A stretch of DNA of 64,000 nt, filler included, from Acidimicrobiia bacterium (GTDB taxonomy: Bacteria > Actinomycetota > Acidimicrobiia > Spongiisociales > CAZKJJ01): assembly GCA_046759765.1 (NCBI GenBank). It is 3 parts of 3 records of this genome, joined end to end, with 100 filler letters (N's around TTAATTAATTAA, not from the genome) between each part and the next. Parts side by side here need not be neighbours in the genome. Positions count along the whole stretch, not along the records: positions 1 to 24,874 come from JBHICV010000022.1; 2 more parts are not named here. One strand, given 5' to 3'. The position numbers were made by a program, and so were the translations under genes. Shown here piece after piece: positions 18,175-47,913 of the stretch. Numbering within the stretch: position 1 is the stretch's first letter; every line of letters starts with the position of its first letter. The notes below the pieces were generated by a model. The model searched no databases, had not been told where the DNA came from, and saw only the letters and a list, made by a program, of their open reading frames with translations.

Positions 18175-18233
18175 GCGCGGATCATAGGTCTCCCGGAAGA
18201 GGTCCCCAGCTGCCTGTGGGACAATGGTTGGTT

Positions 18234-20318
18234 ATGCATAATCGGGATACCTCCATCCTGGCGGAGATTCTGCCCCCTGAAGAGAGGGAGATTGAGGCCG
18301 TAGTCGGGCGCTACCAAAGGGTCGCTCCGGCCATAACCCGATTCGCCCGAACCCTGGCGGACAACGACGACCTCCGCGTGAGGCTCGGGTCGGAGGCATC
18401 AGCAAGCCCCGACGAGATTGTCATCGACCCGCGCCTCTTTCAAGCCGCCTACGCGCGCCGGGCACCGGTCACACCCGCCGAGGTCGCGCTGGCGTCCGCG
18501 CTACATGAAGCCGTGCACCTGCTCACAACGAATCTGGACGATCCCCGTCCGATTCCAGATGACTGGAAGCTCGAGGAGGCAACCTCTGAGCCCGCGGCTG
18601 TACTGGATGCCCTGAGCCTGGCGGGCGGAGCTGCCGCGGTTTCGCTCTTCTTCGCGGTCGAAGACGCTCGGCAAGAGGCCATCGGGCTCTCCACGTATCC
18701 CGGTGCCAGGTCCGTTCTCAGAGACCTGTACGCGGCCGCGCTCGGTGATGGCCTGTCCAACTCCGATGCCTTGGGCCAGTACGCCCTCAGCTGTTTCTTT
18801 CTGATCGGCGATCACGCCACGCGGGAGGAGTTGGAGAAGCGGGTTCATGGATCGGTGGCGCCTGCGCTGTCTGACGCGCTTCCGTTCATTGAGGAGGCGC
18901 GTTTGGCAACAGACCCGTGGGAGCACGCCACGCTCACCCTGCAGTTACTCGCCGTCGCGCGCATGCATGGGCTGCTGAGCGAGGCCGAGACCGACGAGAG
19001 TCCAGCCAGTCGTAAGGCCAAAGAAGACGCAGAAGCGTCCGAGATAGCCGAGGCGGTGGACCGGATCCGGCTCACAACCCCGGTTCTGCAGGACGCCCAG
19101 AGCCATGATCAGACCAAGCAAACGGCTGAGGCCGCCGCACTTTCCCAACAGCAAGGCGACATCGACACGGCCGCAGATGCGGCCACCGATCAGATCCTGC
19201 GGATCTCCACCGCTCCAACCGTCTACCTGCCCACCGGCCAGGGAGGCAAGCTCGTTGTCGACCACCTCCCCGATCGCTTTCGGCTGTTCGCACCTCAAGG
19301 GGATGCACTGATTCAGGAGACGGCTCAAGCATGGGGTGTTGCACAGCGGCACGTCTCCGGCGAGCTGTATCCGCTGTTCATCGCCAACCAGCGAAGAGGG
19401 CTCCGCTCGGGATATGACGCCGGCGATCTCTCTCCCTACGCAGCCCTGTTCATCGGCGCGGGTCTCTACCAGCGCATGTACGAGCGCCGGCAACGTCCGA
19501 CCCGACGTGCCTATGCCGTCAGCCTGCTCATCGACGGCTCCGCCAGCATGTTGCAGCCCCGGCCAACCGAGAATGGGACTCGGACCGCTCCATGGGGTCT
19601 AGCCGCGGCGACTCTCGGCGCCTGGACGCTTGCTCGTCTTTCTGACGAATTGCAGATCGACTTCGAGGTGGGGATCTTCAACCGGTCATTTGCCGCTACG
19701 GCCACCGACAGCGAAGCCAGCTTCCAAAGAAGAAGAGCCGATGCCACGGGGGGCTTGCGCCGGACACAGAGCGGAGCTGCGGACCGGCTGACTACGACAG
19801 TCAATCACTACCTCATCAAGCCTTTCGAGCAACCCTGGCGCACCGCTGAGCGTCTGCTCAGCGGCTTGTTCTGGATGGCGGCCGAGCCCAAAGAGGCCGC
19901 CGCGCAGTGTCGAAGGGACCCGAGCGAGTCTCCCCCCGTCTCCATGTTCGAGCGGGCAGCCAACGTCGATGAGTTCAATCTGACCCTGGCGGCCCAGCGC
20001 ATGGCCGCGCGAAGGGCTCGGGTGCGGGTAATGATCGTGCTTGCCGACGGCATGACCCGAGGTTCGCTGCGCGCCCTCTCCAAGGCCGTGGAGTCGGTCG
20101 AAGGATCGGGCACGACCGTGCTTGGCATCGGTATCGGCGATGACACCGTCAGCGAGGCATACGCTCGTTCGCAGGTGGTAGACGAACCGACCGCATTGAC
20201 CCGAGCCATGATCGACGGCACCAGAGCGGCGCTGCGTCGCAGTCTGGCGCTGTGGGGCTTCGACGCATGGTGGATCAGAGCCAGCCGACAGCCGGCAAGA
20301 GAGGAGACCAGTGTCTGA
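18234..20318 (+). CDS. CobT/NorD-like protein with an N-terminal HExxH metallopeptidase-like domain and a C-terminal vWA domain
   Basis: ALHEAVH and VEDARQE in the N-terminus. The vWA part has MIDAS LLIDGSASM, MIVLADG and VLGIGIG. Confidence 0.78.
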   Translation: MHNRDTSILAEILPPEEREIEAVVGRYQRVAPAITRFARTLADNDDLRVRLGSEASASPDEIVIDPRLFQAAYARRAPVTPAEVALASALHEAVHLLTTNLDDPRPIPDDWKLEEATSEPAAVLDALSLAGGAAAVSLFFAVEDARQEAIGLSTYPGARSVLRDLYAAALGDGLSNSDALGQYALSCFFLIGDHATREELEKRVHGSVAPALSDALPFIEEARLATDPWEHATLTLQLLAVARMHGLLSEAETDESPASRKAKEDAEASEIAEAVDRIRLTTPVLQDAQSHDQTKQTAEAAALSQQQGDIDTAADAATDQILRISTAPTVYLPTGQGGKLVVDHLPDRFRLFAPQGDALIQETAQAWGVAQRHVSGELYPLFIANQRRGLRSGYDAGDLSPYAALFIGAGLYQRMYERRQRPTRRAYAVSLLIDGSASMLQPRPTENGTRTAPWGLAAATLGAWTLARLSDELQIDFEVGIFNRSFAATATDSEASFQRRRADATGGLRRTQSGAADRLTTTVNHYLIKPFEQPWRTAERLLSGLFWMAAEPKEAAAQCRRDPSESPPVSMFERAANVDEFNLTLAAQRMAARRARVRVMIVLADGMTRGSLRALSKAVESVEGSGTTVLGIGIGDDTVSEAYARSQVVDEPTALTRAMIDGTRAALRRSLALWGFDAWWIRASRQPAREETSV

Positions 20319-21306
20319 GACCGTCACGTTCAGCGATCCGACCGGAGAAGGAAAGCCCATCACCCTCGATGCCTTCGAGGTGCCCAAAGACCTAGACGAC
20401 CGGGACATGCGGCTGCGCAAGATTCCCGAAGTCGACCCCCATTACGTGGATCTCGGCATGCTCTACAAGTTCGCCGCCGTCGAGCAGGTGCGGCGGGCGA
20501 CCGGCAGCGAGTTCGTCCCACTTCACGTTGCCGTTCGAGGCCACATGGGAACCGGCAAGGACCACGACATCGAGCAGTACGCAGCCACACTCCAACTCCC
20601 CTACTACCGGATCCCCCTGACCGGCGAGGTTCGCGACGTGACTCTCATCGGATCCACCCAGCTGCACGGCGATGGCAAAGGCGGCACCGAAAGCAGGTGG
20701 GAGGACGGAGAGATCACCCGGGCGCTCCGAGGCCCCGGAATCGTCAGCCTGTCCGAGCTCAACGCCGCCGGCGCCGAAACCCTATTCGCGCTGCATGGGC
20801 TCCTCGATCGGTACGGGGCGCTGGACCTCCCGACCGGTGAGACGCTTCCACTCCGTGACGACGTGCGTCTGTTCGGCACGATGAACCCAACGGACCTCCG
20901 TGACTACGCCGGAACGCAAACCCTCAACAAAGCCTTCGCCGACCGCTGGGTGATCTGGGAGAAGGACTTCCCTACTCCGGAACAGATCACCGCCATGCTC
21001 GAACGAAGGTATCCCACCCTCAAGGGAGCCTTCGTCGAGCCGATCTCTCTCCTCGCCGTCGAGGTCAACGCCTCGTTCTCGGCCTCCGATGCCGGCGTGC
21101 GAGTGGAGACACCGCTGAGCCTAAGAGCGGTCCTTGACCGGCTCCCGACGGGCCTCCGCATGTTCGCCGACGTCGAAGACCCTCTCCGATCGGCGTGGGT
21201 GGAGTTCGTACTGCCTCACATCGACGCCTTCGACCGAGATCACTATGAGACCGTCTGGAACGCAGTCGTCCGAACCGGTCCCAAGGGGCCGCCTTTCGAG
21301 GACTGA
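20311..21306 (+). CDS. CbbQ/NirQ/NorQ (MoxR) family AAA+ ATPase with variant Walker motifs
   Basis: GHMGTGKD, WEDGEITRALR, IVSLSELN, sensor-1 GTMNP and YAGTQTLNKAFADRW (Arg finger). Overlaps the vWA gene by 8 nt. Confidence 0.85.
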   Translation: MSETVTFSDPTGEGKPITLDAFEVPKDLDDRDMRLRKIPEVDPHYVDLGMLYKFAAVEQVRRATGSEFVPLHVAVRGHMGTGKDHDIEQYAATLQLPYYRIPLTGEVRDVTLIGSTQLHGDGKGGTESRWEDGEITRALRGPGIVSLSELNAAGAETLFALHGLLDRYGALDLPTGETLPLRDDVRLFGTMNPTDLRDYAGTQTLNKAFADRWVIWEKDFPTPEQITAMLERRYPTLKGAFVEPISLLAVEVNASFSASDAGVRVETPLSLRAVLDRLPTGLRMFADVEDPLRSAWVEFVLPHIDAFDRDHYETVWNAVVRTGPKGPPFED

Positions 21307-21846: not shown

Positions 21847-22917
21847 ATGCGTCCCTACGAACTGAACGATCCCGAGCTCAACCGGCTGATTCGTGAGCTG
21901 ATCGATGCCGCCGGCGGAAGCGGAGACGCCGACCTGGTGGCGGAGTTGATCACCACCGCAATCAAGCTCCAGCGTGACGGAGCCGACCGGGGCGAGCTCA
22001 AGCTCATGAACACCGCCCTCAAGGAGATGAGGTACAGCAACCTGGTATTCACCAAGTACCGCGACGTTCCCAAGGTCACCGTGTTCGGCTCAGCCCGGAC
22101 CGAGAAGGGAGACCCGAACTACGAGCTCACCGTACGCTTTGGAAAGGAGATGGCCCAGCGGGGCTGGATGGTGGTCACCGGCGCAGGTCCAGGGATCATG
22201 CAGGCGGCCAACGAGGGTGCCGGCTCCGACAAGTCGATCGGCGTGAACATACGCCTGCCTTTCGAGGCCGACGCCAATCCGCATATCGAGAACCCTCGGC
22301 TGATCAACTTCAAGTACTTCTTCACTCGCAAGCTCGGCTTCGTGAAGGAGTCCCACGCCTTTGCTCTCTTTCCGGGAGGCTTCGGAACGATGGATGAGGT
22401 CTTCGAGCTACTCACGCTCGTTCAGACGGGAAAGAGCGATCTGCACCCGATCGTGATGATCGAGGCTGAGGGGAGCACGTACTGGCAGACCTGGACTCGG
22501 TTCGTTCACCAGGACTTGTTGGGAAATGGGCTGATCAGCGAGTCGGATCTGAATCTGTTCGAGATCACGTCGGACGTCGAGGTGGCAGCCGACGAGATCT
22601 GCCACTTCTACGCCAATTACCACTCACAGCGTTATGTAGACGGCCGCCTCGTACTCCGACTACTGCACCAGCCGTCCCCCGAGACAGTGACCGCCCTCAA
22701 CGAAGACTTCGCGGACATCCTTACCGACGGGACCATCGAGCTGATCGATCCCACGCCGGCCGAACTTCGCGACGGCGACGCGCTCGAGTGCTCGCGGCTG
22801 GCGCTGGCGTTCAACCGCCGCGACATCGGACGCCTCCGACAGCTGGTCGATCAGCTCAACGATCTCGTCAAGGCGGAGCCCGCCGAACTCCATCCCCCAC
22901 CTCGCTTCACCCCCTGA
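21847..22917 (+). CDS. LOG family (TIGR00730-type) nucleotide phosphoribohydrolase with terminal extensions
   Basis: VTVFGSAR, TGAGPGIMQAAN, FKYFFTRK and PGGFGTMDE motifs. Confidence 0.88.
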   Translation: MRPYELNDPELNRLIRELIDAAGGSGDADLVAELITTAIKLQRDGADRGELKLMNTALKEMRYSNLVFTKYRDVPKVTVFGSARTEKGDPNYELTVRFGKEMAQRGWMVVTGAGPGIMQAANEGAGSDKSIGVNIRLPFEADANPHIENPRLINFKYFFTRKLGFVKESHAFALFPGGFGTMDEVFELLTLVQTGKSDLHPIVMIEAEGSTYWQTWTRFVHQDLLGNGLISESDLNLFEITSDVEVAADEICHFYANYHSQRYVDGRLVLRLLHQPSPETVTALNEDFADILTDGTIELIDPTPAELRDGDALECSRLALAFNRRDIGRLRQLVDQLNDLVKAEPAELHPPPRFTP

Positions 22918-22949
22918 CTGGAGCTCCACGCGGCCGCTACCATTCGGGT

Positions 22950-23678
22950 GTGCAGGAGATCCTTTCTGACCTAGTCGCGGAGGAACAGGCGCTGGACCAA
23001 TTTCTACAGCGCGTACCCATTCGCGAGTGGAAGAGCAACATTCCCGGTCAGTCCTGGACGATTCAGGACACGGTGAGCTATCTCGCTCTCGGCGAGGAGC
23101 TCGCGCACGCGGCGCTCGAGGGCCATGCGCACCCCAGCCTCGACGGCCACTCATATGAAGTACTGCGGGAAGCGAGCGCAGCACGAGGACGTGCGATGCG
23201 CCCGCAAGACGTGATCGAGTGGTGGCGGCACGAGCGGGCCGCCGTTGTGGATGCGCTTTCCCGGCTAGGTGAGGATGACACCGTCGTCTGGTTCGATGAC
23301 AAGGTCACTGCCAAAGCGTTCGCCAGCTCGCGGCTGGCCGACACCTGGTCTCACGGGCTCGACATCCATGCCGCCATGAGCACCGACGTCGAGGACACTC
23401 CCCGTCTTCGCCACATTGCGTGGTTGAGCTGGGAGACGCTTCCCATCGCCTTCTCCGACGCCGGTGAGCCGTACAGCGACCCTGTGCGGGTTGAGGTCAT
23501 CGGAGCCAACTATGCCAAGTGGGTATTCGGACCCCCAGACACCGATCAGCTCATCAAGGGTCGGGCAGCGGAGTGGTGCCGCGTAGCGGCACGTCGGATG
23601 GACGCCTCCAAGACATCACTGCAGGTTTCGGGAGAGACGGCCCAGCGGGCACTCGAGGTCGCCCGGGTTCAGGTCTAG
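22950..23678 (+). CDS. Maleylpyruvate isomerase family (mycothiol-dependent, DinB-like) protein
   Basis: LSDLVAEEQALD, WTIQDTVSYLA, RLADTWSHGLDI and RLRHIAWL. GTG start at 22950, 6 nt after TACCAT. Confidence 0.75.
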   Translation: MQEILSDLVAEEQALDQFLQRVPIREWKSNIPGQSWTIQDTVSYLALGEELAHAALEGHAHPSLDGHSYEVLREASAARGRAMRPQDVIEWWRHERAAVVDALSRLGEDDTVVWFDDKVTAKAFASSRLADTWSHGLDIHAAMSTDVEDTPRLRHIAWLSWETLPIAFSDAGEPYSDPVRVEVIGANYAKWVFGPPDTDQLIKGRAAEWCRVAARRMDASKTSLQVSGETAQRALEVARVQV

Positions 23679-24442
23679 TGGCCTATCGGCTGATCGGGAT
23701 GGTCCATCTCGGACCTCTACCAGGATCGCCACACTTCGAAGATCTCGATTCGGTTCTGAGGGGCGCCGTCCGGGATGCACGCGTGCTCGAAGAGGCCGGC
23801 TTTGATGCGCTGTGCGTCGAGAACTACGGAGATGCTCCGTTCAGTGCAACCTCGGTGCCGCCGTCGACCGTAGCCGGCATGACGAGAGCCATCTCCTCTG
23901 TCCTGGATGCCTGCCCCCTACCGGTGGGCATCAACGTGCTTCGCAACGACGCCACCTCCGCGTTGGCGATTGCGGCCGCTTGTAGCGCCGCCTTCATACG
24001 CGTGAACGTGTTGACGGGCTCGATGTTCACCGACCAGGGGATCATCTCCGGCCAGGCCGCCGAGGTAGCGAGAGCCAGGAGCGCGGTTGCGCCTAATACG
24101 GAGGTCTATGCCGATGTGTTTGTGAAGCACGCGGTTCCTCCACCGGGGGTGACCTTTGAGGACGCCGCCGCCGACACTTGGACGAGAGGCGGCGCCGATG
24201 CACTCATTGTCTCGGGCCCGGGTACTGGAGAGCCGGCCGATCTAGCTCTTGTTCGGGCCGCCCGCAAGGTCGCGCCCGACGCCCCTCTGCTGGTTGGTTC
24301 GGGCGTGACGGCCCAGACAGTCTCTGAGGTCTTGGCGGAGGCGGACGGGGTGATAGTCGGTACGTCCATCAAAGAAGAGGGAGTCACGTCTGCGCCGGTC
24401 AGCCTGCGGCGAGCAGCGGCTCTGGTGAAAGCCGCTTCGTGA
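23678..24442 (+). CDS. BtpA/SgcQ family protein
   Basis: IGMVHLGPLPGSP, VENYGDAPF, GINVLRND, ADVFVKHA and LLVGSGV motifs. Confidence 0.9.
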   Translation: MAYRLIGMVHLGPLPGSPHFEDLDSVLRGAVRDARVLEEAGFDALCVENYGDAPFSATSVPPSTVAGMTRAISSVLDACPLPVGINVLRNDATSALAIAAACSAAFIRVNVLTGSMFTDQGIISGQAAEVARARSAVAPNTEVYADVFVKHAVPPPGVTFEDAAADTWTRGGADALIVSGPGTGEPADLALVRAARKVAPDAPLLVGSGVTAQTVSEVLAEADGVIVGTSIKEEGVTSAPVSLRRAAALVKAAS

Positions 24443-24874: not shown

Positions 24875-24974
24875 NNNNNNNNNNNNNNNNNNNNNNNNNN
24901 NNNNNNNNNNNNNNNNNNTTAATTAATTAANNNNNNNNNNNNNNNNNNNNNNNNNNNNNNNNNNNNNNNNNNNN
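24875..24974. other. Artificial contig linker (N44-TTAATTAATTAA-N44)
   Basis: 100-nt gap with a six-frame stop linker at 24919-24930. Confidence 0.95.
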
Positions 24975-47813: not shown

Positions 47814-47913
47814 NNNNNNNNNNNNNNNNNNNNNNNNNNNNNNNNNNNNNNNNNNNNTTAATTAATTAANNNNNNNNNNNNNNNNNNNNNNNNNNNNNNN
47901 NNNNNNNNNNNNN
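47814..47913. other. Artificial contig linker (N44-TTAATTAATTAA-N44)
   Basis: Same 100-nt structure as the first gap; genes are truncated on both sides. Confidence 0.95.

Follow-up and report, generated by a model that had tools for sequence, protein, structure and literature searches.

An AAA+ ATPase of the MoxR class with aspartate in Walker A and serine in Walker B, conserved throughout a bacterial order

Two residues of the Walker motifs are treated as near-universal in the catalytic sites of P-loop NTPases, the Ser or Thr that follows the P-loop lysine (position K+1) and the Asp of the Walker B strand, and the question raised by the locus described here is how an AAA+ ATPase may work when each of these positions carries the type of residue expected at the other. 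In this regard, Kozlova et al. (2022, PMC9599734) describe [S/T]K+1 and Asp(WB) as strictly conserved, a status that, on their comparison of 3136 catalytic sites, no other proton-capable residue shares across all P-loop NTPases; the pair is proposed to form a universal proton-trapping module, and a general catalytic scheme is built upon it. An abundant bacterial lineage nevertheless keeps an ATPase in which both positions are exchanged and the other catalytic residues are intact, even in genomes of ~1 Mb. Such a GKD/SE ATPase offers a natural probe of the part played by the two positions and, if the exchanged pair is active, would allow the proton-relay model of P-loop catalysis to be examined in a naturally occurring enzyme. 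The gene lies in what is termed here the window, that is, the whole stretch of 64,000 nucleotides that was analysed, of which only positions 1-24874 represent one contig (G000:C22); runs of N at 24875-24918, 24931-24974, 47814-47857 and 47870-47913 mark the joins, across which gene order is meaningless.

The gene encodes a CobS-like protein of the MoxR class, and its GTG start overlaps the stop codon of the ORF upstream by 8 nt (Table 1). Residues 73-212 match the Pfam AAA_5 profile (PF07728) with 46.6 bits, where the cut-off is 22. The AlphaFold2 model derived from the MAFFT alignment (pLDDT 90.2, pTM 0.89) has the large alpha/beta domain and the helical lid of the AAA+ fold, and the top ranks of a Foldseek search with this model are held by CbbQ2 (6l1q) and by the NorQ chains of NorQ-NorD complexes (9qh4-9qhg), with E values of 1e-17 to 1e-15 and TM scores by target of 0.82-0.86. 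A complex prediction with two copies of the ATPase, ATP and Mg (score 0.01, mark 0.42) speaks neither for nor against oligomerisation.

Table 1. Coordinates of the ATPase, its partner and neighbouring genes in the window, with the evidence for each feature
Feature	Position	Strand	Evidence or remark
CobS-like/MoxR-class AAA+ ATPase gene, 331 aa	20311..21306	+	ORF, GTG start; Pfam AAA_5; AlphaFold2 model; Foldseek
Walker A, GHMGTGKD	20539..20562	+	Lys83 and glycines present; Asp84 (GAC, 20560-62) where Ser/Thr is expected
Walker B, GIVSLSELN	20737..20763	+	Ser148 (TCC, 20752-54) where Asp is expected; Glu149 (GAG) kept
Sensor 1, TMNP, Asn192	20878..20889	+	Invariant in 50 orthologues; kept in 90% or more of sequences once outgroups are added
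Arg finger, ADRW, Arg212	20938..20949	+	Invariant with outgroups included; aligned to the Arg of Midasin NRF
Sensor 2, SLR, Arg272	21118..21126	+	Invariant with outgroups included
Partner, 700 aa: CobT/NorD-like N-terminal domain, linker, C-terminal VWA domain	18216..20318	+	ORF, Foldseek, Atlas, PHROG
HEAVH (HExxH) of partner	18504..18518	+	Invariant in 17/17 aligned partners
Glu154 of partner	18675-77	+	Invariant in 17/17 aligned partners; ~53 residues after HExxH
MIDAS, DGSAS (DxSxS), of partner VWA domain	19533..19547	+	Invariant in 17/17 aligned partners
Asp611 of partner, in LADGMTRG	20046-48	+	Distal MIDAS Asp; invariant in 17/17 aligned partners
DinB/MDMPI_N-fold protein	22788-23678
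BtpA-family protein	23519-24442

The Walker A motif departs from the canonical GxxGxGK[S/T] by one residue only, Asp84 at K+1, such that the motif itself is not lost. Walker B departs from hhhhDE at the Asp position, where Ser148 is found, and also has a polar residue at position -2 (Ser146; mostly Asn in orthologues). That these residues stand at the canonical positions was the claim of an initial annotation of this DNA, of which the coordinates, codons and residues proved exact. In a phmmer search of PDB sequences, several AAA domains of Midasin (E 2e-24) give gap-free pairings of their GxxGxGKT and hhhDE[LM]N with the stretches ghmgtgkd and vslseln, and the ATPase also matches CobS (9ujv), NorQ (9qh4) and CbbQ (6l1q). 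When the ATPase is aligned by MAFFT to its closest canonical relatives, the two motifs line up with GHTGTGKT and IVILDELN and their flanks are almost identical (GHMGTGKDHDIEQYAA vs GHTGTGKTEAVRQFAA; IVSLSELNAAGAETLFALHGLLD vs IVILDELNAAEPEVLFALHGLLD). In the AlphaFold2 model, helix 83-94 has Asp84 in its first turn, and strand 143-148 ends with Ser148. Since phmmer, MAFFT and the placement in the model agree, Asp84 and Ser148 occupy the canonical K+1 and Walker B Asp positions. The remainder of the site has the usual complement of an AAA+ ATPase, with the sensor 1 Asn, the Arg finger acting in trans and the sensor 2 Arg found as Asn192, Arg212 and Arg272, assignments that derive from alignment and spacing and not from function; the spacing from Walker B to these three elements is similar to that of the CobS motifs described in bioRxiv 10.64898/2026.10.09.757910. 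Lys83, Glu149, Arg212 and Arg272 are invariant even when canonical outgroups are included in the alignment, and Asn192 is conserved in at least 90% of the sequences. In other words, the P-loop Lys, catalytic Glu and Arg finger that the initial annotation called intact are kept across orthologues and outgroups alike, and the sensor 1 Asn nearly so.

A departure from consensus could in principle signify that the gene is decaying or mis-assembled, with the odd residues no more than errors or neutral damage, although nothing beyond the departure itself favours this. Among the best 120 of 1597 homologous hits (75-100% identity), both Asp84 and Ser148 are invariant (120/120), and all of these sequences read GHMGTGKD and xxx[N/S]LSELN, with Asn at position -2 in 116 and Ser in 4. 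The same two residues are kept in all 50 species-level orthologous loci, at identities down to 56%, and they are kept through synonymous change, Asp84 being encoded by GAC in 34 loci and GAT in 16, and Ser148 by TCC in 23, TCG in 11, TCT in 9 and TCA in 7. In a library of representatives at 50% identity the family comprises one full-length representative and fragments, and those fragments that cover the motifs carry GKD (10/10) and SELN (10/10). For the 855 of 1225 pairs with a finite value, the median dN/dS is 0.14, and the six closest pairs lie at 0.01-0.09. Invariant columns number 125 of 325 in the 50 orthologues, including the runs G77-H-M-G-T-G-K-D-H-D86 and L147-S-E-L-N-A-A-G154, as well as T190, N192-P-T194, D211-R-W213 and S270-L-R272. 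The ATPase is under strong purifying selection, and the two residues are strictly conserved.

The nucleotide sequence is likewise reproducible. Contigs of runs X1 and X2, which are possible sources, are identical, and from a further sample (X3) there is a contig that spans 20327-20901 and shows 0 differences; strains related to this one, in X2 and X4, differ at 20562 by C>T, which changes GAC to the synonymous GAT. Decay and sequencing error are ruled out by this conservation, by the low dN/dS, by the near-universal presence of the gene in the lineage (below) and by the occurrence of the same sequence on independent contigs, such that virtually no weight can be given to them. The proposal that the gene represents a subfamily and not a case of decay has, therefore, held, as has the comparison of homologues and dN/dS that was suggested with it: among the 120 listed of 1597 there is no close homologue with GKT/DE. 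Two of the orthologue matches (G321:C58, here L020, and G276:C1) contain one in-frame TGA each, and both motifs are intact in L020.

The distribution of the gene is sharply bounded. It was found in 168 of 401 genomes sampled from the class, among them every sampled genome of the order to which the window belongs (109/109, in eight families; 108/108 without the unpublished G254) and 58 of 65 genomes of family f13, whose members have genomes of ~1 Mb, and in none of the 226 genomes sampled from all other families of the class. In a sample of the phylum (401 genomes), relatives outside the class appear in two genomes only, at 38% identity. The nearest outgroups, a set made up of P0146, P0238, P0246 and P0264, 20 relatives of P0146 and the genomic loci L063 and L064, have GK[T/S] in 26/26 cases and [D/E]E in all 24 with a readable Walker B. 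Within this set, the 20 relatives of P0146 have Thr at K+1 in 17 and Ser in 3, and their Walker B position is Asp in 14 and Glu in 4, the motif having been missed by the search pattern in 2; the two 38%-identical relatives (L063 1240-2325 and L064 1234-2454, both on the minus strand) combine GKT with LLLEELN or LLLEEMN. With Asp or Glu thus alternating among the outgroups, the Walker B acid appears from these alignments to be unusually plastic in the superfamily.

A quick IQ-TREE analysis of 55 rows places the 30 GKD/SE rows in one clade (SH-aLRT 100) on a very long stem (4.46 changes per column), and a single change of state is enough to account for the exchange. Either the DE or the EE outgroups may be the sister of the clade. 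No intermediate, whether GKD with DE or GKT with SE, was found in the best 120 of 1597 homologues, in the family fragments of the 50% library, in the 20 relatives of P0146 or in the two 38%-identical relatives, which come from another family of the phylum. As for recurrence elsewhere, a survey of 117 Midasin-like proteins found no Asp at K+1 among the P-loops that its regular expression matched, though many Walker B motifs escaped that expression. The phylogeny and the sampled homologues indicate, then, a single origin of the exchange, on one stem branch, with both changes arriving together as far as the sampling reaches; independent occurrence of the two, which the initial annotation named as a finding that would count against it, was not encountered. 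A single stem event has, however, a further consequence. What looks like co-variation of the two columns is one event, and compensation cannot therefore be deduced from repeated co-variation. Two side observations concern the acid at Walker B: Glu-Glu replaces Asp-Glu in many of the nearest canonical relatives (L063, L064, P0246, P0264, P0273-P0276), and in Midasin-like AAA domains roughly one in four of those Walker B motifs that the pattern found, many having been missed by it, has Glu at the Asp position.

The same branch carries further changes in the site. Thr to Met79, Glu to His85 and a variable residue to Asp86 are clade-specific and invariant, and the replacement of a hydrophobic residue by Asn146 is nearly so (49/50, with Ser in the window). 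Since four other residues of the site changed on this branch, the functional unit may be something other than the pair. The initial annotation had described a reciprocal swap of two residues; both exchanged residues are indeed real, but with at least four more site residues altered (Met79, His85, Asp86, Asn/Ser146) the alignments would make 'rewired site' a fairer name than 'reciprocal swap'.

In considering how such a site could function, it is helpful to look at natural departures from the consensus. Bacterial enhancer-binding proteins such as PspF and NtrC (AAA+ clade 6) are active AAA+ ATPases with an acidic residue at K+1, the Walker A of PspF being GxxxxGKE, a motif conserved in sigma-54 activators (Joly et al. 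2012, PMC3419264). In that study, the PspF variant E43D has a Vmax of 22.3 per min compared with 39.5 per min for the wild type (56%) and an unchanged Km, whereas E43A has 1.37 per min and the Walker B mutant D107A 0.23 per min. Because E43D stays active, an acidic K+1, Asp included, can be said to support AAA+ catalysis; because D107A reaches only 0.23 per min, an acidic K+1 alone does not make the Walker B Asp dispensable. The genome of the window itself has an NtrC-type sigma-54 activator with GESGTGKE and FMDE (G000 contig C246, L065:1-1407, minus strand; Sigma54_activat, E 9e-68). The likeness is a partial one. In the enhancer-binding proteins the Walker B Asp is kept and required, the K+1 residue is Glu and not Asp, and these proteins belong to another clade, have a GAFTGA loop and have no VWA partner. 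Nevertheless, for one half of the exchange, the acidic K+1, there is a precedent which the initial annotation lacked, and its statement that either change alone usually cripples activity is over-stated in the light of the natural Glu of sigma-54 activators and of the activity of PspF E43D.

Other departures are listed by Kozlova et al. (PMC9599734), who give NMP kinases with Gly at K+1 and dethiobiotin synthetase with Glu at Walker B and, in the supplement, torsinA and DnaC with Asn at K+1 and very low ATPase activity, and MglA with its Walker B Asp relocated to another element. Sigma-54 activators apart, torsinA and DnaC are the AAA+ proteins known to lack a hydroxyl residue at K+1. TorsinA, DnaC and MglA likewise depart from the [S/T]K+1-Asp(WB) pair, but none of them has a carboxylate on K+1 together with a hydroxyl at Walker B, and MglA is a small GTPase. 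Within the portions of that paper drawn on here no mention of Asp at K+1 or of Ser at Walker B was found, nor, within those of its supplement, any entry for PspF or Sigma54. In the literature searched, which was of limited coverage, GKD/SE was not found described for an AAA+ protein, in accord with the earlier remark that it had not been described for CbbQ/MoxR ATPases.

Taken with these precedents, the reading that we favour, and consider probable though well short of certain, is that the protein is a working motor of the MoxR class in which Asp84 would serve as both carboxylate and Mg ligand and Ser148 would supply the hydroxyl. In chemical terms, the carboxylate would have moved from the tip of the Walker B strand to the Walker A helix, at K+1, where Asp84 would most likely ligate Mg2+ in the manner of the natural Glu in sigma-54 activators. 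The hydroxyl of Ser148 could keep the hydrogen bond that joins Walker A to Walker B, such that one acid and one hydroxyl would still bridge the motifs and the charge count of the site would be unchanged. Hydrolysis would then presumably proceed with Glu149, Asn192, Arg212 (in trans) and Arg272 as in other AAA+ hexamers, and the ATPase would act on a client together with its translationally coupled VWA adaptor, which is of the CobT/NorD type. In favour of such a motor are counted the conservation, the dN/dS, the distribution, the kept catalytic residues, the CbbQ/NorQ fold, the MIDAS of the partner, the PspF data and the plasticity of the Walker B acid; against it are counted the need of PspF for its Walker B Asp, the low activity of torsinA and DnaC, the single origin and the four co-changes. 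The description 'compensated, active' in the initial annotation is plausible. The stronger claim, that the clade is fully active and that the catalytic module of [Ser/Thr]K+1 and Walker B Asp would work in it with its members exchanged, is more tentative, and we would put it a little under an even chance.

The low activity of torsinA and DnaC also lends substance to a different proposal, namely that the protein is a nucleotide-binding switch, in which, as has been proposed for those two proteins, ATP would be bound and oligomers formed while hydrolysis would be very slow or would await a trigger; the altered site would serve to slow or gate turnover. Consistent with this are the alteration of both residues that PMC9599734 treats as near-universal for catalysis, the very low activity reported there for AAA+ proteins with Asn at K+1, and the length of the stem, which points to a change of function when the clade arose. 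TorsinA, however, has lost further catalytic elements, with Asn in place of its catalytic Glu and an Arg that is supplied by LULL1 (PMC9599734 supplement), while Glu149, Asn192, Arg212 and Arg272 are all invariant in the present ATPase, a pattern hard to explain without hydrolysis; and PspF E43D, as noted, remains active. A switch is for these reasons unlikely, albeit worthy of serious consideration.

The co-changed residues bear on another arrangement, in which roles within the site have been redistributed. Here Glu149, or the lineage-specific Asp86 or Asn146, would take over the Mg-water role, and Asp84 would do something else, for example inter-subunit sensing. The invariance of His85 and Asp86 and the near-invariance of Asn146, all three clade-specific, would fit such a scheme; PspF E43 is also assigned a role in inter-subunit communication, through an E43-Y126 'ADP switch' (PMC3419264), and MglA documents that a Walker B Asp can relocate. 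On the other hand, in every canonical site described in PMC9599734 it is K+1 that provides the Mg ligand, and we regard a redistribution of this kind as rather improbable. The preferred reading remains that of an active motor with Asp84 as the probable Mg ligand.

What the motor might act upon can be approached through its partner and its relatives. A long ORF on the same strand ends no more than 33 nt from the start of the ATPase gene in all 50 loci, always in the order adaptor then ATPase, and encodes a protein of 650-770 aa; the MIDAS is intact in the 17/17 partners aligned, which share many other invariant positions. The pair has, in other words, the two-gene arrangement of MoxR and VWA proteins. 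For the partner in the window (model pLDDT 75), Foldseek returns the NorD VWA domain and the MIDAS domains of MDN1/Rea1, and its N-domain matches CobT/NorD clusters with TM scores of 0.54-0.63 (Atlas); PHROGs name the ATPase and the partner after phage CobS (phrog_249) and CobT.

Among known systems, CobS and CobT of the cobaltochelatase CobNST (PDB 9ujv series) offer the nearest named likeness. They too consist of an AAA_5 ATPase of ~330 aa and a partner with N-domain, linker and VWA-MIDAS domain, the N-domain of the window partner resembles that of CobT, and the best named matches of the pair are TIGR01650, phrog_249 and the PHROG CobT families. The differences lie in the motifs (GKD/SE in the window vs GKT/DE in CobST), in the gene order of adaptor then ATPase and in the invariant HExxH of the window partner. 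Identification of the ATPase as the CobS of a cobaltochelatase was rejected, since it matches the CobS equivalog TIGR01650 weakly, at 52.1 bits against a cut-off of 558.55, and CobN (PF02514) was found in none of four genomes (G000, 92% complete; G023 and G089, single contigs; G057), in a search that matched 5 of 14 reference genomes as a control. Nor was a close phage relative found, the 208 matching phage records, phage CobS (phrog_249) included, having only 25-31% identity to the ATPase. The pair is, on these comparisons, what appears to be an orphan CobST-like motor without CobN, kept by streamlined genomes of marine type. In CobST the N-domain of the adaptor docks on the small domain of the ATPase and the VWA domain engages the pore of the ATP-closed hexamer (bioRxiv 10.64898/2026.10.09.757910), and by analogy the window pair may assemble in the same fashion.

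NorQ/NorD and CbbQ/CbbO provide the closest solved folds for both proteins, and their logic is alike, with a hexameric motor and a MIDAS adaptor that remodel a client or mature its metal site, although identity is only 19-24% and they have canonical Walker motifs. The neighbouring genes in the window gave no sign of a cNOR or Rubisco context. Downstream of the ATPase lie a DinB/MDMPI_N-fold protein and a BtpA-family protein (Table 1), and within 4 kb of the ATPase pair at 20 orthologous loci, ~1 Mb genomes included, the former recurs in 18 and the latter in 14, compared with 10 for LOG, 9 for DapB, 8 for an M16 peptidase and 0 for a Tag-like glycosylase. The metal-binding DinB-fold neighbour is a candidate client.

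The partner has features of its own. Its HExxH and the downstream Glu make up a zincin-like signature, and the partner has no match to a peptidase family in Pfam. To our knowledge, such a signature is not known from CobT, NorD or CbbO. A similar arrangement is present in one of the 38%-identical outgroup loci (L064), where the partner lies downstream of the ATPase and, in likeness to that of the window, has HELGH and EDAR. At one orthologous locus (L051, G062:C11), the longest frame upstream of the ATPase is of 414 aa and aligns poorly to other partners, yet tblastn with the window partner still finds a match, and the short frame may reflect a frameshift, whether of the partner gene itself or of its assembly.
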